Counted from the stretch's first letter, positions 3,453-34,700 are shown. The stretch: DNA of 64,000 nt from Candidatus Abzuiibacterium crystallinum (GCA_002787155.1 PCVY01000023.1:6828-70827), one strand, 5' to 3'. Notes: generated from the letters alone by a model not told the origin. Translations and numbers: made by a program.

Positions 3453-4937
3453 ATGTGGACAAAAGAACGCCTTCAAGAAATTATCGCTACTAAAATGTCC
3501 GACTATACACTGGTGGTTGTCTCGAATCGCCAGCCCTATAGTCATGTCTTAAAATCAGGCAAAGTAATTTGCCAAAGGCAGCCCGGCGGTTTGGTCACCG
3601 CTCTCAATCCCGTTTTACAAGCCACACAAGGTCTCTGGATCGGGGTTGGTATGAGTCCTTACGATCAGCAGGTGCTTGATGCAAGCGGTAAAGTTCGGGT
3701 ACCGCCTCAGGGTGATAATGGTTATTGGTTACGGCGGCTTTTTTTAAGTAAGGAAGACATGGACGGTTATTATTATGGTTATTCAAACGAAGGATTATGG
3801 CCGCTGGCACACATTGCTTACACACGGCCTAACTTTATCGAGTCTGATTGGCAGGCATACCAAAAAGTCAATCGCATGTTTGCGGATGCAATCTTGCAGG
3901 AAGTTGGGGACCGCAATGCCTTTGTGTGGGTTCAGGATTTTCATTTAACCTTGGTGGCTAAATATTTGCGCGAAGCCAACAAACCCAACATTGTCACATC
4001 ACTTTTTTGGCATATTCCTTGGCCCAATTCGGAAGTTTTTCGCATTTGCCCGCAAAAGAATGAAATCCTGGAAGGTTTGTTGGCTTATGATATGCTGGGT
4101 TTTCATATCCGTTACCATTGCGACAATTTTTTTGCTTCCGTAAACCGCGAACTCGAATGCCGCATTGATTACGAACGGCGTTCGGTCAGTATTCAAAATC
4201 ATGAAACCTTGGTGCGTCAATTTCCGATTTCGGTAGATGCGACGTACATTTCCCAAGAGGTGGAGCAGCCGGAGACGGTTGAAAGATGCAACCATTTGAG
4301 AGATCATTTTAACATTGGCGACCGCAAAATTATTTTAGGGATTGATCGCATTGATTACACCAAAGGCATTCCGGAAAAATTAAAAGCACTCAACCGATTC
4401 CTTGAAAAACACCCGGAGCAAAAAGGACAGTTTAGTTTCTTGCAATTGGGGCAAATCAGCCGTATTCATATTCCGCGTTACAAACAACTCAATGATGAAA
4501 TTAACGCCTTGGTAGAAGAGATTAACTGGAAACACTCTGAAGGTACCTGGCAGCCTATTATTTTAGACCGTTCCTACATTGATCAGGCCGACATCAATGC
4601 GCTTTATCGGATGTCGGATGTTTGTGTGGTGAGTTCGCTTCATGACGGCATGAATTTGGTGGCGAAAGAATTTGTGGCTTGCCGTCCCGATTTGAACGGG
4701 GTGTTGTTGCTCTCAGAGTTTACCGGTGCCGCGCGGGAATTAACGGATGCCGTTGTTTTTAATCCTTACGACACGGAATCATTTGCAGATGCTTTGCAAA
4801 TGGCTTTGACCATGCCGCTTGAAGAACAGGAACGCCGGATGCGGCGGATGCGGGAAATCGTTTTTCATAACAATATTTACCGCTGGGCAGGGAAAGTCCT
4901 TTCACAACTTTTAAAATTTGAGTTTCAAGAAATATAA
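3453..4937 (+). CDS. otsA: Alpha,alpha-trehalose-phosphate synthase (GT20)
   Basis: 494 aa. The sequence VVSNRQPY...GGLVTAL...[16 protein letters not shown]...VWVQDFHL...[10 protein letters not shown]...[14 protein letters not shown] is the GT20 OtsA motif series. Confidence 0.88.
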
Positions 4938-7688: not shown

Positions 7689-9716
7689 ATGAAAAACGGT
7701 TTTCAGCAGCGGTTGACTCAATTTTTTCCGACAGAGCGCATTATTTTCCCAACCTTATTGGCTACTTTGGTCGGCATTTCTATTGGTTTTGCGGTTGTGT
7801 TTTTTATTAAAACCATTGATCTAAGTGAATATCTTTTCTTTGGAGCAGGTCGAGGAAAACTGGGTCTGTTGGGACCTTATGCGGTGGTATTTATTCCTGC
7901 TTTAGGCGGTCTTTTAGTCGGGTTATTGGTGACGTTAGGTGCCAAGCAAGCCGGCGGTCATGGTGTGCCGGAGGTGATTAAAGCCATTGCCCTTAAGGGC
8001 GGAAAAATTCCTATTTTTTCTGTTTTGATTAAACTCATTGCTTCCGCTATTTCAATTGGTTCAGGCGCGTCTGTTGGCCGTGAAGGTCCTGCGGTTCATA
8101 TCGGCTCAGGCATTGCTTCATTTACCGCACGCATTTTTAAACAAAGTGAAGCACGCATCAAAAATTACGTCGCCTGCGGTGCGGCAGCCGGTATTTCGGC
8201 CGTTTTTAACGCACCCATTACGGGTGTGATGTTTGCTTCTGAAATTGTCATTCGCGACTTTGGTGCACGCGCGCTCAGCACAGTCGTGATTGCTTCGGTG
8301 TCTGCCAGTACGATCAGCCGTATGTTTTTGGGGCACTCACCGGCATTTACCGTTCCCGTTTATAGTGTCTGGCATCCTTTGGAACTAATTCTTTATTTTA
8401 CGTTGGGTATTTTATCTGCTTTTGTATCACTGTTCATGATTAGTTCGTTGGACCGTTTGGAGCGCGGATTTGAATCTTATCAAGTGCCGGCATGGTTAAA
8501 ACCGGCCGTGGGCGGTTTTATTGTCGGGTGTATCGGGCTTTACTATCCGCAAGTGTTCGGCATGGGTTTTCATTCCATTGAAGGCATGCTAAACGGTGCT
8601 TTGGGTTCGGTCATGCTGCTTTTAGCGCTGGTTTTCATGAAAGCCGTGGCAACCAATGTTTCCATTAGTTCGGGAAGTTCAGGCGGTGTTTTTGCTCCGG
8701 CACTTTTCATCGGAGCCGCGTTAGGCGGTGTCGTGGGAAAATTGTTTTATAACCATTTACCGTTTCCCGTGGCGCCTCCCGGTGCTTATGCTTTAGTAGG
8801 CATGGCGAGTGTGTTTGCGGGCGCTTTTCATGCTCCGGTGACGGCGATTTTGCTCGTGTTTGAAATGACGGGCGACTACCGAATGATATTGCCGATCATG
8901 ATTGCGGTAGTGGCTTCGACATCCATTTCACAGTTATTCAGCCGCGACTCGATCGATACAATCAGTTTAAGGCGGAGCGGCATTGACCCTGGTTTTTTTG
9001 AAGAAGTGAAGGTGCTCGGCGCTTTGCAGGTACGGGATGCGATGACAGCTCAATTTGCCACCGTTCACCGAGACTTGCCCGGAAAGTTGCTGCTCGACAA
9101 AATGGCGAAAGAAAAAGATAAAAGTATTTTTGTTGTGAATGACCAAGAGCAATTGGTAGGACTCATCAAACCCGAAGAGGTGCAAAAAGCGCTTTTTGGG
9201 GAAGACATGACGGCGATTGTGGCAGATGACCTTATGTATCCGTTGGAGGAGCATTGTTTTGAGGATGAACCGCTTAGCGAAGTAGCGCATTTTATGATGG
9301 AACGGCACATCACGCAAATGTCCGTCATGGATTCGGTTGATCCCAAAAAAGTGGTGGGGGTCATCAAAAGCGAAGACATTTTTCATGCTTACACGGAGGT
9401 AACCGAAAAACGTTCCAGTCTCCTTAGCCGGATGGAGCACGAAAGCAGTCATGCCAGCGGGATGGTTCAGATTCGCTTTGTCATTTCACCCCGCTCGACA
9501 GTCACCGGAAAACCCATTAAAGAAATTAATTTACCGGACGGCATTGTCCTGACCTCGATCAAACGCCGGCAAGCTGTTTTAATTCCCGAAGGCAACACGA
9601 TTTTGAAAGCCCGCGACAAAATTTGGGCTGTCATGATCCCGTCTCAGGAAGAAGTATTTCGCAGTTGGCTGAAAGATGCTCAGTTAGCGCCTTTTACTTT
9701 TGATGCGGCTTATTAA
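7689..9716 (+). CDS. ClC family chloride channel / H+-Cl- antiporter with a C-terminal CBS pair and a TrkA-C (RCK_C)-like domain
   Basis: 675 aa. ClC selectivity motifs are present: GHGVPEV, GREGPAVHIGSG, GVFAPALFIGA. A cytosolic tail follows, with CBS-like segments and a final beta-rich domain (VISPRSTVTGKPIKEINLPDGIVLTSIKR). Confidence 0.85.
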   Translation: MKNGFQQRLTQFFPTERIIFPTLLATLVGISIGFAVVFFIKTIDLSEYLFFGAGRGKLGLLGPYAVVFIPALGGLLVGLLVTLGAKQAGGHGVPEVIKAIALKGGKIPIFSVLIKLIASAISIGSGASVGREGPAVHIGSGIASFTARIFKQSEARIKNYVACGAAAGISAVFNAPITGVMFASEIVIRDFGARALSTVVIASVSASTISRMFLGHSPAFTVPVYSVWHPLELILYFTLGILSAFVSLFMISSLDRLERGFESYQVPAWLKPAVGGFIVGCIGLYYPQVFGMGFHSIEGMLNGALGSVMLLLALVFMKAVATNVSISSGSSGGVFAPALFIGAALGGVVGKLFYNHLPFPVAPPGAYALVGMASVFAGAFHAPVTAILLVFEMTGDYRMILPIMIAVVASTSISQLFSRDSIDTISLRRSGIDPGFFEEVKVLGALQVRDAMTAQFATVHRDLPGKLLLDKMAKEKDKSIFVVNDQEQLVGLIKPEEVQKALFGEDMTAIVADDLMYPLEEHCFEDEPLSEVAHFMMERHITQMSVMDSVDPKKVVGVIKSEDIFHAYTEVTEKRSSLLSRMEHESSHASGMVQIRFVISPRSTVTGKPIKEINLPDGIVLTSIKRRQAVLIPEGNTILKARDKIWAVMIPSQEEVFRSWLKDAQLAPFTFDAAY

Positions 9717-9772: not shown

Positions 9773-11449
9773 ATGAATCTCGGCAGCATACTCAAAGAGC
9801 GCGGTCTTCTGAATGCGGATCAATTGATTAAGGCCGAATCTTACGCTCAATCGAAAAAAATACCGTTAGGTTCGGCGATTCAGCGCCTTAATCTTGCCGC
9901 CAAAGAGCAAATTTACATGACGGTAGCCGAATCCATCGGTGTTCCTTATGTGGATCTATCCAGCTATGAAATTTCTCCCGATTGCACAAAATTGATCGCG
10001 CAAGAAACCGCGCGGCGTTACCGGGCCATTCCGCTTTTCAAAATCCAACAAACACTCACAGTCGCCATGGAAGACCCCACCAAATTGGCGGCGATTGACC
10101 GGATCCGGCATGAATCCAAAATGGAAATCGAATTGTGTTTGGCCGCCCCTGAAGACGTGCAAGAAGCTTTAGACCGTTACTTTGGCGTTTCGGGGACCAT
10201 TTCGAAATTGCTGGCTTCTTTAGATGCCGAAGACAAAGTCCGCCGGCGCGGAAGTGCGCCGCCCAAAGCAAAGCCGCTTAGCTTTGAAGCAACGGGGGGT
10301 GAACAGCCGATTGTGCAATTGGTCAATTTGATAGTCGAAGAAGCCGTGGAGCGGGGCGCCAGTGACATTCATATTGAACCCGAAGCAAACGAACTGCGCG
10401 TTCGTTACCGCATTGATGGTGTTTTGCAGGAAGCTCCTTCGCCGCCCAAACACTATGAAAGCGCGATCGTGTCGCGCTTAAAAGTGTTGGCCAATTTAGA
10501 TATTGCCGAAACCCGCATGCCCCAGGACGGTCAAATGAAAATCCAAGTCAAGAGCCGGGCCATTGATATTCGTGTCTCGGTCGTCCCGACCATTTATGGG
10601 GAAAACGCGGTCTTACGTATTCTAGATACCAACCGCGCTTTGCTCGACTTAAAACAATTGGGTTTTGCCGATGCCATGCTCCATCAGTTTGAAGAACTCA
10701 TCCGAAAATCCTACGGCATGATTTTAGTCACAGGCCCTACGGGCAGCGGCAAAACCACTTCACTTTATGCAGCTTTAACAGCCATTAATTCGGTTGAGCG
10801 CAGCATTGTCACCATTGAAGACCCGGTGGAATTCAAATTATCCCTCATTCGCCAAATCCAAGTGAACCCCAAAGCACAGCTGACGTTTGCCAACGGGCTT
10901 CGTTCCATTGTGCGGCAAGATCCGGATGTCATTATGGTCGGTGAAATCCGTGACTCCGAAACGGCCCACATTGCTACGCAAGCGGCGCTCACGGGCCATT
11001 TGGTTTTTAGTACGCTGCATACGCAAAATGCGGCGGGAGCCATTACGCGATTAGATGACATGGGGGTTGAGCCGTTTTACATTTCCTCATCGCTTCTATG
11101 CGTGGTTGCGCAGCGGCTGGTGCGTACCATTTGCGGGCAATGTAAAAAAACATATGATCCGCCTTCGGATATTCTAAACGCGATTCCGGCCAAGCACCGT
11201 TCAGAGATGAAGTTCTATAAAGGAAAAGGCTGTCAAAAATGCCAGCAAACGGGTTATCGAGGCCGTATTGGTATTTTTGAATTGCTTCGCATGACCGATG
11301 CGATCCGCCGGATGATTGCCAAAAAAGCAGTCAGTGCCGACATCCAACAACAAGCCGAAGCTGATGGCATGCAAACTTTATTTCTTGATGGTTTGGAAAA
11401 AGTGAAAGCGGGTATTACCACCATTGATGAAATTTTGAAAGTGATGTAG
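9773..11449 (+). CDS. GspE/PilB-family secretion or pilus-assembly ATPase
   Basis: 558 aa. It has an N-terminal T2SE_N/MshEN-like domain, Walker A GPTGSGKTTSLYAAL, Asp/His boxes (IMVGEIRDSETA, GHLVFSTLHT) and a tetracysteine cluster CGQCKK...CQKCQQTGYRGRIGIFE. Confidence 0.92.
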   Translation: MNLGSILKERGLLNADQLIKAESYAQSKKIPLGSAIQRLNLAAKEQIYMTVAESIGVPYVDLSSYEISPDCTKLIAQETARRYRAIPLFKIQQTLTVAMEDPTKLAAIDRIRHESKMEIELCLAAPEDVQEALDRYFGVSGTISKLLASLDAEDKVRRRGSAPPKAKPLSFEATGGEQPIVQLVNLIVEEAVERGASDIHIEPEANELRVRYRIDGVLQEAPSPPKHYESAIVSRLKVLANLDIAETRMPQDGQMKIQVKSRAIDIRVSVVPTIYGENAVLRILDTNRALLDLKQLGFADAMLHQFEELIRKSYGMILVTGPTGSGKTTSLYAALTAINSVERSIVTIEDPVEFKLSLIRQIQVNPKAQLTFANGLRSIVRQDPDVIMVGEIRDSETAHIATQAALTGHLVFSTLHTQNAAGAITRLDDMGVEPFYISSSLLCVVAQRLVRTICGQCKKTYDPPSDILNAIPAKHRSEMKFYKGKGCQKCQQTGYRGRIGIFELLRMTDAIRRMIAKKAVSADIQQQAEADGMQTLFLDGLEKVKAGITTIDEILKVM

Positions 11450-11459
11450 TTTAGAGATA

Positions 11460-11626
11460 CCAGAAACCGGTTTCATAAGTCCTCGTAAACCTAATAAAGA
11501 CATGTCATTGCGAGCTGAAGGCGAAGCAATCTCAGGTTTTAAAGAGGGATTGCCGCGTCGCTCCTTCGGAGTTCCTCGCAATGACGTGAATAAGGTAACT
11601 TATGAAGCCGCTTCCAGAAACCGGTT
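11460..11626. mobile_element. MITE-like palindromic element between the ATPase and platform genes
   Basis: The core has nested inverted repeats: GTCATTGCGAG (11504-11514) / CTCGCAATGAC (11575-11585), and GAAGCAATC (11523-11531) / GATTGC (11548-11553). Outer inverted repeats are TTCATAAG (11472-11479) / CTTATGAA (11599-11606). A 13-nt direct repeat CCAGAAACCGGTT flanks it at 11460-11472 and 11614-11626. Confidence 0.6.
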
Positions 11627-11714
11627 GCCAGTCAGCAGGTTAGTGATTCAGAAAATTTCAGCGGCACCTGGATTCTGGTTGCTGTTTTCCGGTTACTTGC
11701 TAAAGGGAACACAC

Positions 11715-12956
11715 GTGCCCATTTATCGTTATAAAGTCAAAACCGCGCAAGGTGAAGTGGTCACCGGTGCGATTGATGTTGAGAACAAGGAGTCGCTTCA
11801 AAAACAGTTGCGCACGCAAGGCCTGAGGCTTTTAGCGGCACAATTGGTTTCCACCAAGCCTGTTCCGGATGAAGACCGGTCCCTTCTGGTCGAACAAAAA
11901 AGAATCCGCGTTTCAAAAGCCCGTGTCCGCGATGAAGATATTTTAATGTTTACCCGTGAATTGCACAGTCTGGTCCGCTCCGGCATTCCGATCTTAAGCG
12001 GACTGCATTCCATGGCAGCCTCCACGAGTCACCGGACGATTAAAAATGTTGTTCTGTCTTTAGCCAATGATGTGGAAGCGGGCGAGCGGCTCTCAGATGC
12101 CATGCGCCGTCATCCGAACGTTTTCGAAGAAGTCTATGTGAGCAGCGTGGTAGCCGGTGAAGCGGCAGGGCAATTGCCGGAAGTATTAAGTCATTTAATT
12201 TCACTGCTTGAGCACCGGATTGAAACGCGAGGCGATATTCAAACGGCGACCCGTTATCCGTTAATTGTTTTAATCACGCTCGGTATTGGGTTTGGGATTA
12301 TCATTAATTTTGTCATTCCAAAGTTTGCCGGTTTCTACGCCAAATTTAACGCCGAACTTCCGCTGCCGACAAGGTTTTTAATTGCCTTGGGTCATTTGAC
12401 TTCCCAGCACGGTCTCGCTATGTTGGTCGTGCTTACTATTTGTATTTTCGCGGTTCGTATTTTTCTGCGTACGCCGATCGGAAAAAGTAGGTGGGACCAG
12501 CTCACGCTTCAAGTGCCTGTTTTTGGTCCGCTGTATCATAAAATTGCGTTATCTACTTTTGCAGCAACACTTGAGATGCTATATCGAAGCGGTGTTCCTA
12601 TCACGGAAGCTTTGCGTGTTGCCGCGCATGTGACCGGTAATGATATCGTAAGGCGCGGTGTGATCGACGTGCGGGAAGGTGTTTTGGCAGGCGAACCGAT
12701 TGCGGCGGTCATGAAACGGCATGCGATTTTTCCTTCGCTCATGGTGCAAATGATGTCCACTGGGGAGCAGACGGGTAACTTGGATCAATTGTTGCGTGAT
12801 TTGGCCAATCATTACGACCGGCAAGTCAAATATGAAACCAAGAACCTGACCACTTTAATCGAGCCCATGCTGACCATTTTATTAGGAGGGATGGTGCTGG
12901 TATTTGCCCTGGGTATTTTCTTACCCATGTGGAACATGATTCATCTCTTCAGATAA
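11715..12956 (+). CDS. GspF/PilC-family inner-membrane platform protein
   Basis: The listed ORF is 11502..12956, but its first ~70 codons are the translated MITE (MSLRAEGEAIS...). A GTG at 11715 is preceded by AAGGGA 6 nt upstream and gives MPIYRYKVKTAQGEVVTG, a typical GspF N-terminus, for a product of ~413 aa. Two T2SSF repeats are evident. Confidence 0.85.
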   Translation: MPIYRYKVKTAQGEVVTGAIDVENKESLQKQLRTQGLRLLAAQLVSTKPVPDEDRSLLVEQKRIRVSKARVRDEDILMFTRELHSLVRSGIPILSGLHSMAASTSHRTIKNVVLSLANDVEAGERLSDAMRRHPNVFEEVYVSSVVAGEAAGQLPEVLSHLISLLEHRIETRGDIQTATRYPLIVLITLGIGFGIIINFVIPKFAGFYAKFNAELPLPTRFLIALGHLTSQHGLAMLVVLTICIFAVRIFLRTPIGKSRWDQLTLQVPVFGPLYHKIALSTFAATLEMLYRSGVPITEALRVAAHVTGNDIVRRGVIDVREGVLAGEPIAAVMKRHAIFPSLMVQMMSTGEQTGNLDQLLRDLANHYDRQVKYETKNLTTLIEPMLTILLGGMVLVFALGIFLPMWNMIHLFR

Positions 12957-12969
12957 TGCCTTGGGGTGT

Positions 12970-13095
12970 CTTGGGGTCAGCACCTGAAGTTCATTGACAT
13001 TATTTAATATTCTTAATGAAAGCTTCAGGTACAGTCCCAACCAACCCTTAATATATAAATTGGAAGGTTGGGACAGGTCGGGGTCTGACCCCAAG
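12970..13095 (+). repeat. 126-nt nested-palindrome element (predicted three-way junction) just after the platform gene
   Basis: Outer stem: CTTGGGGTCAG (12970-12980) / CTGACCCCAAG (13085-13095). Inner hairpin A: ACCTGAAGTTCATT (12982-12995) / AATGAA..CTTCAGGT (13015-13030). Inner hairpin B: GTCCCAACC (13034-13042) / GGTTGGGAC (13066-13074). Confidence 0.55.
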
Positions 13096-13099
13096 AGTA

Positions 13100-13127
13100 T
13101 TGAACTTAACGTATTCTGTGGTATGAT
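13100..13127 (+). promoter_or_regulatory. Sigma70-like promoter (extended -10) for the first pilin gene
   Basis: TTGAAC (13100-13105), a 16-nt spacer, then TGgTATGAT (13119-13127). It lies between the palindromic element and the SD/ATG of the first prepilin gene. Confidence 0.4.
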
Positions 13128-13211
13128 AATTAAAGTTCAGTAAGCAGTTTTAGTTTCTATGTTTTCATGACGTTATGTTATAAAGATATCACTGCAAACG
13201 GAGGTCGTGCA

Positions 13212-13727
13212 ATGAAAAGTCGTCGTTTATCCCGAAAAGGTTTTACCCCGTTAGAGAATGAATCAGTATTAATTGGAAGTCATGACAAAAAGCCTATTGA
13301 TTGTCAAAGTGGAAAAACCCGCTTGAGAAAGAAACGCTCTCTAACGGGGTTTACGTTAATTGAATTAGTGATGGTCATTGTTGTATTAGGTTTTCTAGCG
13401 GTTGCCGCATTGCCGTCCTACTTTGATATTTCAACCGCTGCCCAAACAGCCAATGAAGATGGTGTCGTTGGCGGTGTCCGAGCCGGCATTGCCACCCAAT
13501 TTGTATCAGTGTTTACCACCGGAATCGGAACGCCTACATTTCCGGCTTCATTGGATACAGTAGGTGTTGCAACTACCTGTGATTCGGCTAACCCATGTTT
13601 TTCAACAGTATTACCAGGCGGTGTAACAGACGGTAATTGGACAAAAACAACCGCCACGCAATACACGGGCCCAAACAGCGGAACGTATACTTACAATTCA
13701 TCAAACGGCACTTTTACATCACCCTAA
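13212..13727 (+). CDS. Prepilin-type N-terminal cleavage/methylation domain protein (candidate major pilin/pseudopilin) with an abnormally long, duplicated leader
   Basis: GGAGG (13200-13204) lies 7 nt before ATG 13212, inside listed ORF 13167..13727. The sequence has RSLTG|FTLIELVMVIVVLGFLAVAALP (class III signal plus hydrophobic helix). The C-terminus is Thr/Ser/Gly-rich. Confidence 0.8.
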   Translation: MKSRRLSRKGFTPLENESVLIGSHDKKPIDCQSGKTRLRKKRSLTGFTLIELVMVIVVLGFLAVAALPSYFDISTAAQTANEDGVVGGVRAGIATQFVSVFTTGIGTPTFPASLDTVGVATTCDSANPCFSTVLPGGVTDGNWTKTTATQYTGPNSGTYTYNSSNGTFTSP

Positions 13728-13918
13728 TTTATTTATTCTCTGTTTTTCCTGTTAAGTGCTGCTACTGATGGGAAACTATTATTTCCATGTGATAACATGT
13801 ATTTTCACACAAAAAGTATTACTCCGCCCACGGACGCTCAAACAGTTCTATCAATAATTAATAGAAAAACTTCCCTAACGCAATCCGTTAGCAACAGCAC
13901 TCTTCAGAACTTAACCTT

Positions 13919-14386
13919 ATGCTGAATTTTCGCGCTGAGCGATGCAACCGAGTTTCTCGCGGGGCGGGGTTTACGCTTATTGAGCTCACCATCATCATTG
14001 TGATTATCGGTGTTTTGGCTGCTGCTGCTATTCCGCGTTATCTTGATCTCACCAACGAAGCAAAATTAAATGCCACCAAAGGTATTTTAGGTAATATGCG
14101 TGCCGCCATTATGATGCAGCGTGTGGATAACATCATCAAAACAGGTCAAGACCGTTTTCCGTCGTTAGCAGATATTCAGGATAATCCTTTTCAAACGGGT
14201 TGTACCGTTTTAGAAACGGGGGATCTTCCCGACAATCCTTTTAGTACAGGCTCGGATCCGGACGGTGTGGTGAGTACCACAGGCCGCCCCGTACCGACCG
14301 GTACGGATGGGGCGTGGGCCTATGATCCGCGAACGGGCGGTTTTTACGCAAACACCAAGAGCGGGAATGGCGAGGAACTTTTCTAA
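13919..14386 (+). CDS. Prepilin-type pilin/pseudopilin (GspG/PilA-like)
   Basis: 155 aa. It has RGAG|FTLIELTIIIVIIGVLAAAAIPRYLDLTNEAK, with Glu at +5 and the typical alpha1 helix. Confidence 0.82.
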   Translation: MLNFRAERCNRVSRGAGFTLIELTIIIVIIGVLAAAAIPRYLDLTNEAKLNATKGILGNMRAAIMMQRVDNIIKTGQDRFPSLADIQDNPFQTGCTVLETGDLPDNPFSTGSDPDGVVSTTGRPVPTGTDGAWAYDPRTGGFYANTKSGNGEELF

Positions 14387-14399
14387 TTTAGTAACTTAT

Positions 14400-14969
14400 A
14401 TGGGGTCAGACCCTGACCTGACCCCAAGACTAAGGGTCAGGTCAGGGTCTGACCCCAGGAAGAAGCGTTCCCTGTCTCTAACGGGGTTTACCCTCATCGA
14501 AATCCTGGTTGTTTTCACCGTCATCGTTTTTCTTTCCGTTTTTGCACTGACTAATTTCATCGATTTCTCCGCAACCCGTATCGAGGGGGCTGCCAAACGC
14601 ATTCAAACCGACATTCGTTATATTCAGCAAATTGCGTTGGCGCAGCAAAGAAGAACGCGTATCACCTTTGATGCCGGCACGGATAGTTATGCGGCTGAAA
14701 TGGAAAACACGCCCAATGCGGAAGATTGGACGTCGATCAATGACCCGCTGACCCGCCAGACTTTTCAGGTTATTTTTAATACGGGCGACTATCAAGGGGT
14801 TGATATCACAGGGGTGACGCTTGGCAGCGGGGATGTTTTGATATTTGATGAGATGGGCGATCCTTATACGGATGGAAACGTCGCTTTGGTAGAACCCGCC
14901 AATATTGTTTTAAACGGGACGCGTCAGATCCAAATCACAAGGGAAACAGGCCGTGTTCAAATTGTTTAA
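14400..14969 (+). CDS. Minor pseudopilin, GspH/FimT-like
   Basis: In listed ORF 14307..14969, the ATG at 14400 follows the upstream stop (14386). It has SLSLTG|FTLIEILVV followed by AKRIQTDIRYIQQIALAQQRRTRITFD, a GspH/FimT-type domain pattern. Confidence 0.72.
   Translation: MGSDPDLTPRLRVRSGSDPRKKRSLSLTGFTLIEILVVFTVIVFLSVFALTNFIDFSATRIEGAAKRIQTDIRYIQQIALAQQRRTRITFDAGTDSYAAEMENTPNAEDWTSINDPLTRQTFQVIFNTGDYQGVDITGVTLGSGDVLIFDEMGDPYTDGNVALVEPANIVLNGTRQIQITRETGRVQIV
14401..14457. repeat. REP-like perfect palindrome (24-bp arms, 9-nt loop)
   Basis: TGGGGTCAGACCCTGACCTGACCC (14401-14424) and GGGTCAGGTCAGGGTCTGACCCCA (14434-14457) are exact reverse complements. Confidence 0.9.
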
Positions 14970-15013
14970 CCCGTTAGAGACGCACGGGGTCTGACCCCAG
15001 GAGTACTACTAAA

Positions 15014-15436
15014 ATGCTTATCCAATTTCAAGTTGGAAAGACGCAATTGCAAAAAAGACGCTCTCTAACGGGGTTTACCCTGATCGAAATCGTGATTGTC
15101 ATCGTGGTTCTTTCGCTGGTAGCAGCCACACTTCTGACGGTGATGGGTGCCATTAGTCAAAACGTGATCCTTCCTTTCATGACTCAAATTGCAACCGGGC
15201 TCGCTGAAGAGCAGTTTGAACGCGTGATCGGACTTCGGTTTTCACAAGTCACAGACGAAGGGCCGGCAGCATTTGCGTTTCCCTTTACGGATTATTCGTA
15301 TGAGATTACCGTGAGTCCCGTTCCGGCAAATCTTTTTAATGATCCTTCCATGACACGTTACAAACAAGTGGAAATTGAAGTGAGTCACGCCTTAGTTGGC
15401 CATGTGAATGTGTACACGGTGGTAACCAATCATTAA
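15014..15436 (+). CDS. Minor pseudopilin (GspI/PilV-like)
   Basis: 140 aa. It has KRRSLTG|FTLIEIVIVIVVLSLVAATLL, a prepilin signal. Confidence 0.72.
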   Translation: MLIQFQVGKTQLQKRRSLTGFTLIEIVIVIVVLSLVAATLLTVMGAISQNVILPFMTQIATGLAEEQFERVIGLRFSQVTDEGPAAFAFPFTDYSYEITVSPVPANLFNDPSMTRYKQVEIEVSHALVGHVNVYTVVTNH

Positions 15437-15453
15437 CGGAGGGCTCGGGGCGC

Positions 15454-15478
15454 GGGGTCAGGTCCCGGACCTGACCCC
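15454..15478. repeat. REP-like 25-nt perfect palindrome
   Basis: GGGGTCAGGTCC-C-GGACCTGACCCC. It lies 18 nt after the upstream stop (15436) and 4 nt before ATG 15483. Confidence 0.9.
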
Positions 15479-15482
15479 TGAA

Positions 15483-16043
15483 ATGGATGACATGTTAAGT
15501 CGAATGATGCAAAAAAGAAGAGGGTTTACCCTTGTCGAACTGGTGATGGTGATTGCCATCATCGGGATCATGGCAGGCCTCCTTGGCCCTTTTTTGATTG
15601 TCACCGCTGATGCGCTGGATTTAATGTCCGTACAGTCCAATCTACAGGAAAGCGCTCAGGCGGCACTGGAACGCATGAGCCGTGATATTCGGCGGCTTCG
15701 GGATGATGAAAGTGTGGTGAATGCATCTTCCAGCTTTTTTTGGTTTTATGATGTGGATGACCGTCAAATGATTTATATTTTGGTCGGCAATACTTTGGTC
15801 CGGGTGATTTTTCCCGTTACACTTCCGCTGACTGTTCTAGCCGATCACGTTCAAACACTTTTGTTTCGCTATTATGATGACGATGGAAACCTCATTCCTT
15901 CTCCTGTGGTCGGATTGGGAACCGCCACCAATATCCGCCGCGTTCAAGTCGATATTCTTTTTGCAGACGGCAGTAAAAATTTAGTCGTGGAAGATAACAT
16001 TAGACCGAGAAATTTAAGACATGAATCCGATCGATTCTTTTAA
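15483..16043 (+). CDS. Minor pseudopilin (GspJ/PilW-like)
   Basis: 186 aa. It has MQKRRG|FTLVELVMVIAIIGIMAGLL followed by LQESAQAALERMSRDIRRL, a GspJ/PulJ-type pattern. Confidence 0.72.
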   Translation: MDDMLSRMMQKRRGFTLVELVMVIAIIGIMAGLLGPFLIVTADALDLMSVQSNLQESAQAALERMSRDIRRLRDDESVVNASSSFFWFYDVDDRQMIYILVGNTLVRVIFPVTLPLTVLADHVQTLLFRYYDDDGNLIPSPVVGLGTATNIRRVQVDILFADGSKNLVVEDNIRPRNLRHESDRFF

Positions 16044-17517
16044 AAGCTTGGGGTCAGGTCCGGGACCTGACCCCAGGAAAAAAGGTGTTTCACTGATCGC
16101 AGCCGTTGTGCTCATGCTGTTATTGGGCCTTTCGGGTGCCATTGGTTCGGCCATTGTGGCCAATGCCGGCATCCGCACGGTGCATACAGCACAAAGTTTA
16201 CAAGCCTTAGGCATTGCGCATGCCGGCATCGAATGGTATTTGGAACAATTGGAAGACGATACCGATTGGACTGATCAAACAAATGAAGTTCGCTTATTTG
16301 GGCCGCCGAGCACAGTGAGTAGTTTTACAATCCAGATTAACAATGCGTCTGCTACGGAAGTGAATTTCACATCCCTAGGACTTTTGGCGGGTTTGGATGG
16401 ACGGACCATGCAGCGCCGTTTAACGGTCACGGCTCAAAAAATGCCGTCCGCTTTTCTTTTTGCCTTGTATCAAGGCGAAGACCCGGGGGCTAACTTGGAA
16501 ATCAGAAATTCTTCCGTGGTCACAGGGGACATGTGGTCGCGGGGTTCAGTCAATGTTTTTTCTGGTAACACGGTACAGAATGGTTTGGTGTATGTGCCTG
16601 ATACCGAAACGGTGAGTGGTGCCGGTACGTTTACCGCTAAACAAATGACAGCGCCCTATCCCGCGATGCCGCAGATCACAACCACCAGTTACACCACGCT
16701 CATGGATGGATACGACACTACGATTGATACCGCTTCTGGTGCGGGTGATGATCCGCGAAATAGCGATATATTTTTATCGGGCAATACCATTTTGGCCAGA
16801 AACTTTTCAACATCAGGCACCATGACCATTACCGGGCACGGCACGATCGTCGCATTTCGAAATATGGACCTGCATACCGGCAATGGCGGAACGCTCACCA
16901 TCACACCATCCGGTGGGGACATTGTTTTCTTAGCAGGCCGCAATCTGGAAATCGGTAATACCAATGGCAATTCCACAGTTACAGTGAATGGCTCTGTGAC
17001 ACCCGGCAGTACCTGCCGCTTTTATTCAGAAGCCATGACCAATGCGAGTCAGCGCGTGCGGGTAAGCGGCAGTAATACCAATGTACACGGAGCTAATTTT
17101 TATGCGCGCCGCCGCATCTCAGTGGATAATAATGCTGTCATTGATCAGGGGAGTCTGCTTTATATTGATCGCGCCTCTTCCGCCAATAACAACCAAATTG
17201 ATATTACGGGTTCCGCCACGGCAGTCATCGGCTCTGTGATTAGTACCGGTCGGAATAATCTAAACCTTAGGATCCGGAATCAAGCGACGGTAACCGGTCT
17301 TGTTTATTCGTATGACACGGGCGGCAACGGACGTTTAGAGCTCAACAATTGCACCGTAACGGGTGCGGCGGCGGCCCAAAATTTCCGTGTCGGTAATAAT
17401 AACAATCGGATTCAAAGCGCAGCCGTTACTTACAGCGCCAGCGCTTTACCTTCAAGTGTTCCGAATGGATTTGAGACTTATGTTGTCAAAAAACCGAATT
17501 CGTGGGATCCTTTATAA
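16021..17517 (+). CDS. Large PilX/GspK-like pilus-associated protein with a repetitive C-terminal region rich in Asn, Thr, Ser and Gly
   Basis: 498 aa. The N-terminus KKGVSLIAAVVLMLLLGLSGAIGSAIV...AQSLQALGIAHAGIEWYLEQL matches the PilX N-terminal pattern and has no G|FTLIE site. The remainder is N/T/S/G-rich with short periodic hydrophobic positions, suggesting a beta-solenoid. Confidence 0.6.
   Translation: MNPIDSFKSLGSGPGPDPRKKGVSLIAAVVLMLLLGLSGAIGSAIVANAGIRTVHTAQSLQALGIAHAGIEWYLEQLEDDTDWTDQTNEVRLFGPPSTVSSFTIQINNASATEVNFTSLGLLAGLDGRTMQRRLTVTAQKMPSAFLFALYQGEDPGANLEIRNSSVVTGDMWSRGSVNVFSGNTVQNGLVYVPDTETVSGAGTFTAKQMTAPYPAMPQITTTSYTTLMDGYDTTIDTASGAGDDPRNSDIFLSGNTILARNFSTSGTMTITGHGTIVAFRNMDLHTGNGGTLTITPSGGDIVFLAGRNLEIGNTNGNSTVTVNGSVTPGSTCRFYSEAMTNASQRVRVSGSNTNVHGANFYARRRISVDNNAVIDQGSLLYIDRASSANNNQIDITGSATAVIGSVISTGRNNLNLRIRNQATVTGLVYSYDTGGNGRLELNNCTVTGAAAAQNFRVGNNNNRIQSAAVTYSASALPSSVPNGFETYVVKKPNSWDPL
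16050..16074. repeat. REP-like 25-nt perfect palindrome
   Basis: GGGGTCAGGTCC-G-GGACCTGACCCC. It lies 7 nt after the upstream stop (16043), inside the 5' coding end of the next ORF. Confidence 0.9.
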
Positions 17518-23334: not shown

Positions 23335-23946
23335 ATGGCGGTCAGACCCGAATCGCAAAAAATCGTTTTACAATGGGCTGTCAAAGAGAAAGTGGTATTG
23401 CACTTGTCTGTTTTGGCAGGGTTAATTGTTTTTGCAGCTTTCGCCGTGATAGGTCCGCGGATAGCTGATTTAAACAAACAAAAAGCAAAGTTAAAGGAGT
23501 TTAATTCTTTTTTACTGGGTACACAAGAAGCCGCGAAACGGCTGAGAAATCTAGAACAATTGCTCGCAGATCAGAGGCAGGCATTAAAAGAGCTCAACGC
23601 ACAAACGCTGAAACGAACTTCCATTGCTGCTATGCTGCAGAATTTTACGGCCGCTTCCGAATCACTGCCAATGACCATTTTGGACATCAGACCGGATGAG
23701 GCACCCGCGGTCAATGATCCAAAGGCCGTCGTGCCGGCCTGGAAAGAAAACGGCTTTGATCAAAAGTTATTGAATATTCATTTTCAATGCCGGTACCAAA
23801 CGCTGGGTCGTTTACTGGAACGCTTAGAAGAAACACCTTTAATTTATCATGTCACTAAACTTGAAATGGGGACCAAGGATTTAATCGCACCTAATTTGGA
23901 CATTTCATTAACGTTAGCTTCTTATGTGGAAAATTCACCTCACTAA
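23335..23946 (+). CDS. PilO-like pilus assembly protein
   Basis: 203 aa. It has one N-terminal TM helix, a coiled coil (KQKAKLKEFN...LEQLLADQRQALKELN) and a C-terminal ferredoxin-like region. The position after pilMN supports the call. Confidence 0.55.
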   Translation: MAVRPESQKIVLQWAVKEKVVLHLSVLAGLIVFAAFAVIGPRIADLNKQKAKLKEFNSFLLGTQEAAKRLRNLEQLLADQRQALKELNAQTLKRTSIAAMLQNFTAASESLPMTILDIRPDEAPAVNDPKAVVPAWKENGFDQKLLNIHFQCRYQTLGRLLERLEETPLIYHVTKLEMGTKDLIAPNLDISLTLASYVENSPH

Positions 23947-31701: not shown

Positions 31702-34700
31702 ATGTTCATCCCTAAAAATATCCAGAGAGCCATAGCCTTTTTTCTTGCCATTTCATTCTCTTTATCGAATGGCCCAACGCTTTTACTTGCCGAAACTTAT
31801 CCGGGAAGCAGCCTGCCATACCATGCGAGCTCTGTGAATCCAAATGCTATTTTGGATTCCCTTAAGCTTCCCGGTGAGTTAGGCATTGTTCAAGAGGTTT
31901 ATAGCGCGGTACCAGGTACAACGGTGCCAGGTTCACAGAACCCGGCACCGGCTGTACCTGGTACCGGAATTGGTTTCAAAGTTAATCAACTGGTCATCCT
32001 CGTGCAAAATGCCCACGCCAATTATGATTCAGAGTCAAACGTCCGCAAAATCATCCAGTTCTTCCAAGAGCACTATCAATTAGGACTTGTTTTACTGGAA
32101 GGCGGGGAAGGCAAGTTAGACCCGCTTTTTTTTAAATCTTTTCCCGATGGCAAAATAAAAGAAAAACTGCTGGATCAATATTTAAAACATGGGGATTTAC
32201 AAGGCGGTGAAGCAGCAGCCATTTTGAATCATTCAAACAACCCAACGAGTTATTGGGGCATTGAAGATGAAACTTTGTACCAGCAAAACAAAGCGGCCTT
32301 CTTAAAAGCCATTGTTCAAACGGATCAAATCTTAAAACAGCTTACTCAAAAAGAAGCCGCACTCGAGGAAAACATTGCTTCATTGCCTGAATCATCACAA
32401 ACCTTTTACAAGGCTTGGCAGGCTTTTCATGCGGATGAGATGAATTTGCTGGAATACGTGAAAACGTTAGCTGAGCATACATCGGGTACCGGTTCTGTTG
32501 ACAGTGTCATTCCCGCTCGTCTTTGGCGGGAATCTACTGTGATCGGTGCTCTTGTGCGCTCATTTCCCGAACTTGCCAAATTGTTGGAAGTAGAGAAAGG
32601 CGAGCAAGCCCTCCAAAAAAGCGAAATTGACATGACCGTCAACCAACTGTTGAAAGAATTTCAATCAACTGCGCTGCCGGCGCTGTCAGTCGAATCACAG
32701 AAAGAATGGGGCCAGCGGATCCAGGATTATCAAACCGGCCGGCTCGGCGTGGGTTTTTTGATCAAACAGCTTGAAAGTTTTCTTACCATTCCCGATGTTC
32801 TAAAACCTGCTATTCAGCACGCCCAAACCATTTCTTCCGTCCGGGGAACAGAAATATTCCATGAACTTGAGCATTTAGAGAATGCTGTTCGCGATCAATT
32901 GCCGGGGCGTGAGCGCCTTCATCAAGTTAACGAACTGCATCTCTTGAAACGGTTTGCGCGTTTAGAAATTACACATGAAGAGTGGAAGGTCATTGCGAGC
33001 GCAGCGAAGCAATCTCAAGACCAAGGATTGCTTCGGTCATTTCATTCCCTCGCAATGACAGAAATGCTTAAGAACCATTTCACTTTCTACCAACTCGCAC
33101 TCAAGCGTGACGGCATTTTATCCGGCCGCATTCTCGAAATCATGCGCCGTGAATCTCAAAAAGTTTCGCTCGTGGTGACCGGCGGTTTTCATGAAAGCGG
33201 TATCAAAGAGCGCCTCCGGGCAAACGGCACCGCTTATGTTTTGATTTCTCCTGCGATTCAGGAAGTCGGATCAAACGAGGCTTACCTCAATGCCATGCAC
33301 GACAAGCGTTCTTTTATGAAATATTTTCAAGGCAGTTATTGGGATGCTTTGGCAAAGGATTACATGCAGCAATCGTCAGCGGCTGCGGGTCCGCAGGAAG
33401 AAAAGTTTATTTTTAAGCAGTGGCGCGATCAACTCATCCAAAACACGCTGCAGGAGGGCAGAATCACGCAGGCAACGCGTTACACGCGCTATTTGGATTC
33501 ATTTTTACAAACCGAGGGAAAACCAGCGGATGACAAAGTTGGCAGAAAAACTCAATTAGAAGGTGCTTTCGAAAGTTTCCTTTCAACTTATTTTAAACAG
33601 CATCAAGCTGATTTGAATGCCAAGCTTGATCATTTTGCGGCAGGTTTCAAAAATATGCTCACACAGGGCACCTTCACGCAAGGGGCGGTCGAAGCCTTGT
33701 TGCGTCAAACACAAGTCCTGCAAACGGCTCAACTCGCACCGGATCTCGCTTTGATTCCGGCCTGGAACCAATTTCATTTAAGTGAAGCAACGATTGAAAC
33801 ACTGCCTGATATCAACCAACCTCTTTGGCTCGAGCACAAGCAAAAATCCGAACTCAGGAGTGAAGAGGTAGACTCTGATTATTGGTATGCTTATGGTGAG
33901 GAATTCCTTATTTTGATGGAAGAGGTGGGGTACCGGATAGATGAAACTGACCTTGAAGGTGATATAACTCTGGAGGTAGAGACAGTATCAGACGATCGCT
34001 TTCCTAAAGATTTTAGCAAATTAGCTAAAAGTGTTCCCGAATCGGACCTCACACGTTTACGCGACACATATATCCATATTCTAAAGAATGCCATTGGGAA
34101 AAGTCGAACACTTGAGGAGATAGTTGAAGGCTTGAGCACTTTAATATTAAGGCAGGCAGGAATTCGATTAAATGACAGAAAATTAATTGAAGCCATTACT
34201 GATATTTTACTAACCTATAAAGAAAAAGGGGTGACGGGACCCACCCTGCAGCTGCGCCACGTTTATCTATTTCCAAGATATGGTGATGTGAATGAAATCA
34301 TTCAATTACTGGCCAACCATCGAGGGAAACGCGGAACCTTGAGCCAAACCCAACGGCAACTGATTGCACAGCAACTCGAAAACATGAAAGAGCAATGGCA
34401 AGCAAATTACGAAAGAGCTCAAGCCGAAAAAACCGAAGAACCTAAGGTTGATGGTCAACCCAAAACCGGTGAATCGCTTTGGCTGGAGGGTCAACCAAAA
34501 CCCGAACTCAGAAACGCAAAAGATTATACTCAGATGAGTGTCAAAGAATTGCTTGTAGAACTTCAATCAACTCGAAGTCAAAGTAGTCAAGTCAATTTTA
34601 AAATACTTAGGATTACCAGCGAGCTGGAGCAGCGCTCAGAGAAGATGTTAGACAGCGAGATAGTGGCGACTATCAATGCTTTACTTTCTGCATTGATGTT

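Follow-up and report, generated by a model that had tools for sequence, protein, structure and literature searches.

The DNA analysed here, a stretch of 64,000 nt (GCA_002787155.1, PCVY01000023.1:6828-70827; hereafter the window), comes from an uncultured Omnitrophota bacterium and carries a type IV pilus (T4P) cluster of the MSHA-like kind. This work concerns the 5' end of pil1, the major pilin gene of the cluster, where the Gly-Phe-Thr codons of a prepilin cleavage site occur twice and the DNA between the two copies is bounded by inverted repeats. The pil1 product is identical to 'hypothetical protein COV74_02710' of Candidatus Omnitrophica bacterium CG11_big_fil_rev (GCA_002781965.1) and is encoded on 19 contigs from several samples. 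The features of this region are as follows; coordinates are counted from the first nucleotide of the window, and a slash stands at the cleavage position of a junction.

13100..13127, + strand: sigma-70-like promoter candidate TTGAAC-16-TGnTATGAT upstream of pil1 (consensus scan only, weak)
13200..13214, + strand: Shine-Dalgarno (SD) sequence GGAGG (13200-13204), 7 nt before the start codon ATG 13212
13212-13727, + strand: pil1, major (MshA/GspG-like) pilin gene for a 171-aa prepilin with a predicted 46-aa leader (open reading frame, ORF, and 574 pilin homologues)
13212..13246, + strand: short leader MKSRRLSRKG and left Gly-Phe-Thr copy GGTTTTAC (13239-13246), read as ancestral, with the pattern and length of the orthologue's MNFKRRSKKG/FT
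13245..13257, + strand: left arm ACCCCGTTAGAGA, read as T-P-L-E
13247..13354, + strand: insertion of 108 nt, missing from the orthologue (alignment with L170 3389-3440); its edges can slide within the repeated TTTAC
13258..13337, + strand: loop or spacer of 80 nt, its 3' 51 nt resembling the pil4 spacer
13338..13350, + strand: right arm TCTCTAACGGGGT, coding for S-L-T-G(-1) plus base 1 of the Phe(+1) codon
13347..13415, + strand: class III junction G46/F47-T-L-I-E51 and hydrophobic helix, matched by PF07963 and TIGR02532

An earlier note on this DNA, made from the sequence alone, had described a prepilin leader interrupted in frame by a small element, and all of the anatomy that it gave was recovered at the positions stated there. 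The SD and ATG 13212 are in place, and the gene calls of NCBI and others begin the 171-aa product at this codon; with the promoter candidate located upstream, the left junction would fall within the pil1 transcript. The ORF reads MKSRRLSRKG-FTPLENESVLIGSHDKKPIDCQSGKTRLRKKRSLTG-FTLIELVMVIVVLG, and its two Gly codons, GGT at 13239 and GGG at 13347, are 108 nt (36 codons) apart, in frame and without an intervening stop. The inverted repeat, put at 12 bp in the note, is indeed perfect and measures 13 bp (100% complementary, 80 nt between the arms). The arms are flanked by GGTTTTAC at 13239-13246 and GGGTTTAC at 13347-13354, so that the duplication of GGTTT(T)AC pointed out at the two edges exists; it belongs, however, also to an extended imperfect stem, because GGGTTTACC is nearly self-complementary. 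The loop contains a vestigial internal start position, AAG 13290 (equivalent to ATG 15014 of pil4), and an in-frame TTG at 13323. A promoter within the segment was ruled out, there being no sigma-70-like site inside it. When up to one mismatch is allowed, the arm 12-mer is found 5 times in the 64-kb window, where 0.08 would be expected, and the pilin cluster holds all 5 copies. Perfect inverted repeats of 13 bp or more, separated by 20-150 nt, exist at only four places in the 64 kb, compared with an average of 0.1 in mononucleotide shuffles.

To be regarded as a class III signal, a junction should have Gly at -1, Phe (or Met) at +1 and Glu at +5, and a hydrophobic helix some 20 aa long should come next. 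The profile models place this signal at the second junction of pil1, with scores of 23.3 bits for PF07963 (N_methyl; cut-off 21.2) and 20.8 bits for TIGR02532 (GFxxxE; cut-off 16.3) over residues 46-67. At the first junction, G10/FTPLE, no hydrophobic helix follows (NESVLIGSHDKK...) and neither the N_methyl nor the GFxxxE model matches, which bears out the observation that the true helix comes only after the second Gly-Phe. We infer that prepilin peptidase cleaves pil1 at G46/F47 and would thereby remove a leader of 46 aa.

The segment between the two junctions was compared with homologous pilins. Of the 574 pil1 homologues, 120 were listed, each covering about 58-85% of the query, and the N-termini of 20 were inspected; none of these 20 has an insert (0/20). 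The nearest of the 574, protein P0002 of locus L170, is 71% identical and starts MNFKRRSKKG/FTLIELVMVIVVLGFLAVAALP. Its 10-aa basic leader, which matches the first ten residues of the window's pil1 in length and pattern, runs straight into the helix, and AAAAGGTTTTAC at the window's left junction is identical in L170. The nearest orthologue has an insert-free leader of 10 aa. Conservation of the whole 46-aa leader among orthologous pilins, which the note had named as the finding that would speak against an insertion, is not observed. In global alignment with L170, removal of 13247-13354 gives a score of 95 against 84-88 otherwise, which favours the left junction as the counterpart of the L170 start only slightly. 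A phmmer search of 1.84 billion proteins yielded no real relatives of the 48-aa leader, but only spurious PEGA-repeat proteins. These comparisons support the reading that the 108-nt segment of pil1 is probably a small element, inserted in frame at the cleavage site and tolerated there. The neighbouring gene pil2 presents the converse situation: the L170 gene has the double junction MRKETG/FTPVTE...RSVTG/FTLIE, and the window gene is without it.

Search of the loci compared revealed ten modules in six genomes, namely window pil1 and pil4; L170 pil2, pil3 and pil4; L010 pil3 and pil5; and one each in L179, L181 and L097. L010 is Omnitrophica CG07, with a GspF 40% identical to that of the window, and L181 is GCA_043823745.1. 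The common architecture is GGNTTYAC-CCCGTTAGAGA, loop, TCTCTAACGGGG-TTYAC. Nine of the ten are situated at the cleavage-site codons of a pilin gene, and the tenth (L097) is intergenic, between rho and gspF. Since the cassette recurs at the same codons in other pilin genes and genomes, we concluded that it represents a family and not a one-off accident. At the 384 prepilin junctions of 170 loci, upstream inverted repeats of 11 bp or more are confined to the module junctions, apart from a single A/T-rich chance match. The other window genes concerned, the further arm-bearing features and the occupancy of each gene are given below.

13919-14386: pil2, pilin or pseudopilin
14400-14969: pil3, GspH/ComGD-like
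15014-15436: pil4, pilin or pseudopilin
15483-16043: pil5, pilin or pseudopilin
14475..14486, + strand: orphan right arm in the pil3 leader; no left arm, GGGTCAGACCC palindromes upstream instead; pil3 of L170 and L010 has both arms
14968..15080, + strand: pil4 module; left arm AACCCGTTAGAGA (14968-14980) directly after the pil3 stop, right arm TCTCTAACGGGG (15062-15073)
Occupancy of pil1: window present, L170 absent, L010 not determined
Occupancy of pil2: window absent, L170 present (mature parts 76% identical), L010 not determined
Occupancy of pil3: window right arm only, L170 present, L010 present
Occupancy of pil4: window present, L170 present, L010 absent
Occupancy of pil5: window absent, L170 absent, L010 present

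The pil4 module corresponds to the similar inverted pair that the note had seen near the pseudopilin start at 15014. It is an 11-bp perfect repeat with 81 nt between the arms, its loop holds AGGAG and ATG 15014, and its G/FT lies at 15071. The start of pil3 is uncertain: ATG 14400 would give a 28-aa leader read through palindromes, the gene callers give 189, 200 or 220 aa, and near the junction only CTG 14469, in frame and 9 nt downstream of AGGAAG, resembles a start codon. In L181, the module at 9368-9511 encloses a nested minimal copy of the arms at 9450-9480, GCCCCGTTAGAAAC-TTTAT-TTCTAACGGGGT, whose loop has 5 nt; this suggests that the bare palindrome is the basic unit. Further loci were few: the best matches in GspF searches of genome and metagenome contigs, which yielded L010 and L097, were only about 40% identical and showed no close synteny, and searches with the pil4 and pil3 proteins gave 4 matches and 1 match. 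A scan of viral contigs found no arm pair, and an Rfam 15 E-value scan of 12900-16300 found no relevant family, only chance microRNA-like matches on another palindrome. An integron attC site was ruled out, as the GTTAGAG and CTCTAAC boxes are in the order opposite to R''/R'; since the 64 kb hold no more than five copies, none of them outside the pilin cluster, a DNA uptake sequence was likewise ruled out.

The occupancy pattern might also be explained if the module were ancestral in pil1, as an old cis-regulatory hairpin, and L170 had lost it by precise deletion between the GGNTTYAC repeats. A hairpin flanked by direct repeats favours slippage deletion, as in precise transposon excision. Moreover, the pil4 module is older than the split of the window and L170 genomes, modules appear to decay elsewhere (window pil3 keeps the right arm only, and window pil2 aligns with the L170 spacer and is without arms), and MAFFT can also align the L170 leader to the second junction of the window. 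We nevertheless consider such a loss decidedly improbable, in view of the other inspected homologous major pilins, all without insert, and of the pil1 spacer, which is like the pil4 spacer of the same genome and thus suggests a copy made within the genome. With the pil4 module the older of the two, pil4 is the likely donor.

Upstream of the left arm, 7/9 of the pilin-linked modules have an ATG, a leader and G/A-F-T in frame with the arm. The seven leaders, MKSRRLSRKG, MRKETG, MAKSYSKG, MKRG, MLKHLSPITYHLKPKHG, MVYKRKA and MNFQGATRRA, are mostly short and basic, and by sequence they resemble what interrupted canonical prepilin starts would look like. Five of these seven modules (108, 111, 108, 84 and 135 nt) are in frame and stop-free to the second junction, and the binomial chance of at least 5/7 in frame is about 0.045. 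L170 pil3 must be read through from its upstream ATG, because its loop has no in-frame start; the two L010 modules have ATGs in their loops. Gly(-1) is present at 10/10 pilin-linked right junctions, whereas the left junctions have Gly in 5 cases, Ala in 2 and Leu in 2. Its retention at the right junctions and replacement at some of the left ones point to the right junction as the one under selection. A bias to GGG at Gly(-1) was dropped as evidence of constraint, GGG being a common codon of these genomes in any case. Between the two flanks, the choice of Phe codon (TTT or TTC) agrees in 10/10 modules, two of which are TTC. This agreement is not explained by pairing, and would be explained by target duplication or by recombination at the target. 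The TTYA(C) repeats of the two sides overlap the extended stem and the conserved Phe-Thr codons, and microhomology recombination could also yield them. Pfam often does not flag the cassette-bearing pilins, and gene callers place their starts differently. Two side observations were made in L010. At 11361-11390 the only nearby ATG of the major pilin is one base out of frame with GFTLIE, beside A5/G3/T4 homopolymer runs, which could be due to assembly error, slippage or phase variation; at 12905-12935 tandem heptamers (CACCTAT AACCTAT CACCTAA AACCTAA) stand directly upstream of the pil5 module.

Matched GGN-UUY-AC codons at both feet of a stable stem raise the question whether the cassette is neutralised at the RNA level, either by a ribosome hop or by stem-loop excision and rejoining between the GGN-UUY-AC copies, which would restore the short leader. 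The L010 modules could be seen in this light: they are out of frame and have stops, yet the upstream start and leader are intact and the internal leaders are acidic or atypical. There is also a precedent in the bypass insert of T4 gene 60, which is itself encoded by a mobile element (bioRxiv 10.1101/2022.08.31.505936). However, the 5/7 modules that are in frame and stop-free would have no need to be so if the insert were skipped. The putative take-off codon is not followed by a stop, the 84-135 nt to be crossed are more than the 50 nt of known bypasses, two left junctions have lost their Gly, and no Rfam family matched. Such neutralisation appears to us barely credible.

The arms of the modules are constrained and their loops are free. 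Over the 14-bp core of eleven hairpins, 93.7% of the cells pair, compared with 25-53% after sliding of the partner. At three stem positions both sides have changed (6 cells: GC to CG, GC to AU twice, and four different innermost pairs); in a sample of 9 distinct rows, the covariation score was reached in 0/500 shuffles, a result that a DNA hairpin would fit just as well. The orthologous pil4 modules of the window and L170 agree at 11/11 positions of the left arm and throughout 25 nt around the right arm, while the spacers are 59% identical (shuffles 48.5 ± 2.9) and the third codon positions of the mature protein match at only 19/50, the genes being saturated at synonymous sites. Spacers of different modules are unrelated, except those of window pil1 and pil4 (71% over 51 nt; z 3.9). 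The minimum free energy structure of every module contains the arm stem, which GGG...CCC pairs lengthen across a 2x2 internal loop, and the whole 171-nt region of L181 folds with a z of -8.3 against shuffles. G·U pairs were considered as an indicator of the strand, but there were only two cases, both compatible with the sense strand, and these are too few. Since the arms are complementary and near-invariant across genomes, the hairpin itself seems to be what is selected; and since they lie in transcribed, mostly translated sense-strand sequence, the most economical reading is that it acts, probably, as an mRNA stem.

The same arms are also what a selfish element would carry, that is, a transposable element of the miniature inverted-repeat type (MITE) or a palindrome like the repetitive extragenic palindromic (REP) sequences, mobilised in trans by a transposase from another locus, preferring GGNTTYAC targets and duplicating TTYA(C), its hairpin having no function for the host and the in-frame copies being the survivors in needed genes. 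The terminal inverted repeats of 11-15 bp are perfect in 10/10 modules, the TTYA(C) flanks agree in 10/10, orthologues differ in presence and absence, the L097 copy is intergenic and not in a pilin gene, the L181 hairpin is nested within another module, and in-frame palindromic elements are known from Rickettsia (PMC10969869). Nevertheless, apart from the pil1/pil4 pair the interiors of the copies are unrelated, 10/10 copies are in T4P clusters, with the pilin-linked ones sharing orientation and codon position, and the 64-kb window has no other copy. Nor did Pfam find a transposase in the window among ORFs of 120 aa or more that lie upstream of the giant gene (described below), the ClC channel, GspE and GspF excepted. 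Compensatory changes in the arms, together with arm identity in old orthologous copies whose loops have diverged, would be unexpected for decaying selfish copies. An origin of this kind is in our opinion unlikely, though it deserves to be taken seriously.

As an alternative, the note had raised a DNA switch. In a switch of this kind, a site-specific recombinase would invert the DNA enclosed by the arms, and the pilin would be silenced by a stop or by a flipped SD and ATG. The stop that the note predicted does arise: inversion of 13258-13337 in silico gives ...FTPLESVSFSSGFFHFDNQ followed by TAA, and in pil4 the start would be lost. Same-core inverted repeats at several surface-structure genes are found in Bacteroides and intragenic invertons as well (PMC10028968), and recombination between the arms could homogenise them. 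The assemblies speak against a switch, however. Across ten loci of different sample origin, 13100-13420 varies neither in sequence nor in orientation, and none of the ten shows an empty or inverted allele; for both L170 and L010, the second assembly reproduces the first exactly; and 10/10 modules are in the coding-compatible orientation. No recombinase was found in the window with the same Pfam coverage as for the transposase, and arm gaps of 45 nt (L179) and 5 nt (nested L181) are too close for synapsis. We therefore regard inversion as very improbable.

On these grounds we propose, with a confidence that only modestly exceeds even chances, that a palindromic 'leader-junction cassette' is present in pil1 as a lineage-specific copy, which has rebuilt the cleavage site and whose arms are selected as a hairpin. 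The cassette would comprise about 85-135 bp bounded by the arms ACCCCGTTAGAGA / TCTCTAACGGGGT, with the Phe-Thr codons TTYAC on both sides. A copy, whose source in this genome would most probably be the older pil4 module, may have entered pil1 at precisely its Gly(-1)/Phe(+1)-Thr(+2) codons, the right arm (S-L-T-G) and the second TTTAC rebuilding a full prepilin cleavage site at the 3' end of the cassette. Translation would then start from the original SD and ATG 13212 and proceed through the 36 inserted codons, and the peptidase would cut at the rebuilt site. In the mRNA, the stem might close off the start and leader region of the pilin genes and so affect either processing, as RNase III does at Correia repeats, or translation and ribosome access. 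The cassette may have spread by recombination among paralogues or by transposition; the former may use the GGNTTYAC microhomology and the conserved helix codons between paralogous 5' ends.

Several points weigh against this proposal. Translation, cleavage and in vivo RNA structure of pil1 are predictions from the sequence. Upstream of the gene, the non-coding DNA has diverged too far to show with certainty which of the two junctions is the orthologue of the L170 start, and local upstream alignments to L170 are not significant, their scores being reached by 19/300 and 51/300 shuffles. The covariation rests on few sequences from few genomes, and near-invariant arm sequences also fit recognition by a protein such as a transposase or recombinase, and do not call for selection on pairing alone. 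Folding of the whole region is ordinary for the two window modules (z -0.9 and -1.3), and window pil3 retains a perfect right arm without partner. Read-through is not universal, since both L010 modules, 130 nt in length, are out of frame and their loops contain stops. Finally, the comparison covered only the T4P clusters of these genomes, and the cassette may have copies elsewhere in them.

Comparison with known systems helps to delimit the family. Type IVa leaders have fewer than 10 aa and type IVb leaders about 15-30 aa, and these leaders are inherited features of the protein. The pil1 leader recalls the type IVb ones in being unusually long and basic and in its predicted removal by prepilin peptidase at Gly(-1); it differs in consisting of a short leader plus an inserted DNA cassette, before a mature protein that is MshA/GspG-like. 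Rickettsia palindromic elements (RPEs) of about 100-150 bp lie in frame within protein genes and are translated and tolerated (PMC10969869). With these the pil cassettes share the short palindrome, the in-frame insertion and, as predicted here, the extra translated peptide. RPEs, however, encode a conserved peptide in many unrelated genes, whereas the loops and peptides of the pil cassettes are unrelated, with no family-specific conservation beyond the arm-encoded FTPLE and SLTG, and the pilin-linked cassettes occupy one functional site, the cleavage codons, which they regenerate. Correia repeats pair in mRNA and are cut by RNase III, with changes in expression (PMC10969869). They and other bacterial MITEs are similar in their terminal inverted repeats, short flanking duplications and location in front of or beside genes. 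Correia repeats have conserved interiors, more than 100 copies per genome and a TA duplication, and are mostly intergenic; the pil cassettes, in contrast, have variable interiors and are seen only in T4P clusters. Invertons (PMC10028968) likewise have short shared-core inverted repeats flanking small segments at or inside the 5' ends of surface-structure genes, but the pil cassettes keep one orientation, with spacings down to 45 nt and no invertase nearby. T4 gene 60 and the mitochondrial 'byp' elements (bioRxiv 10.1101/2022.08.31.505936) resemble them as mobile coding inserts with matching flank codons and a stem-loop; most pil cassettes are nevertheless in frame and open, have no stop after the take-off codon and are longer. 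By cleavage-codon specificity, regeneration of the site and variable interiors, the cassette is set apart from RPEs and Correia-type MITEs. The family is small and apparently undescribed, no published description of it having been found in the literature searched.

The remaining genes of the cluster and other observations in the window are as follows.

9773-11449: GspE/MshE-type ATPase gene
about 11715-12956: gspF
Other cluster genes: those for a 498-aa protein, a PilZ protein, a TPR protein, a ParA-like ATPase, PilM/N and a secretin

Among the samples compared, the pilin cluster is almost clonal: in a base-by-base comparison over 12960-16100, G/A at 15209 (E66K in pil4) is the sole difference between the window and the variant contigs L163 and L172. 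The 265-nt gap between gspE and gspF (11450-11714) carries an inverted repeat GTCATTGCGAG...CTCGCAATGAC (about 11504-11585), and gene callers run gspF through this gap to give 484 aa, compared with about 405 aa in homologues. Closely spaced perfect inverted repeats of 13 bp or more are also present at 3973-4086 and 31907-31966, one inside a GT20 (trehalose-6-phosphate synthase-like) gene and the other near the start of the giant gene. This is a single stop-free frame on the + strand, 31699-63999, of at least 10,767 codons, which leaves the end of the window and lies directly downstream of the pilus/secretin cluster; it resembles the giant genes reported for Omnitrophota (bioRxiv 10.1101/2023.11.21.568195). 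The window also has another family of palindromes that is unrelated to the first, GGGGTC(W)GACCCC and GGGGTCAGGTCC-N-GGACCTGACCCC, at 12969-12987, 13070-13096, 14401-14457, 14985-14998, 15454-15478, 16050-16074 and 23340-23349. GGGTCWGRYC has 15 matches against 0.43 expected, 14/15 of them just 5' of or within the starts of pilin-cluster genes. The copy at 14401-14457 is a 24-bp perfect hairpin with a 9-nt loop, and several palindromes of this family are followed by AGGAG or AGGAAG. They are translated in pil3 (GSDPDLTP...) and in the 498-aa protein (GSGPGPDP), and are absent from the orthologous L170 spacers.

For annotation, the family is a warning that such pilins may be given inconsistent starts and be missed by Pfam. 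If neutralisation at the RNA level were true, the cassettes would constitute a chromosomal bacterial family of skipped coding inserts aimed at one functional site, and the out-of-frame L010 copies with intact upstream starts would be the telling cases. The predicted leaders, 46 aa in pil1 and about 54 aa in L181, make the length tolerance of prepilin peptidase testable, and we know of no longer prepilin leader. According to the proposal made here, a palindromic cassette would occupy one precise functional site and mend its own damage by bringing a replacement Gly(-1) junction. Near-invariant, covarying arms before several pilin genes point to an unrecognised hairpin signal in the expression of type IV pili in Omnitrophota, bacteria that are uncultured and whose pili are thought to mediate attachment to the host.

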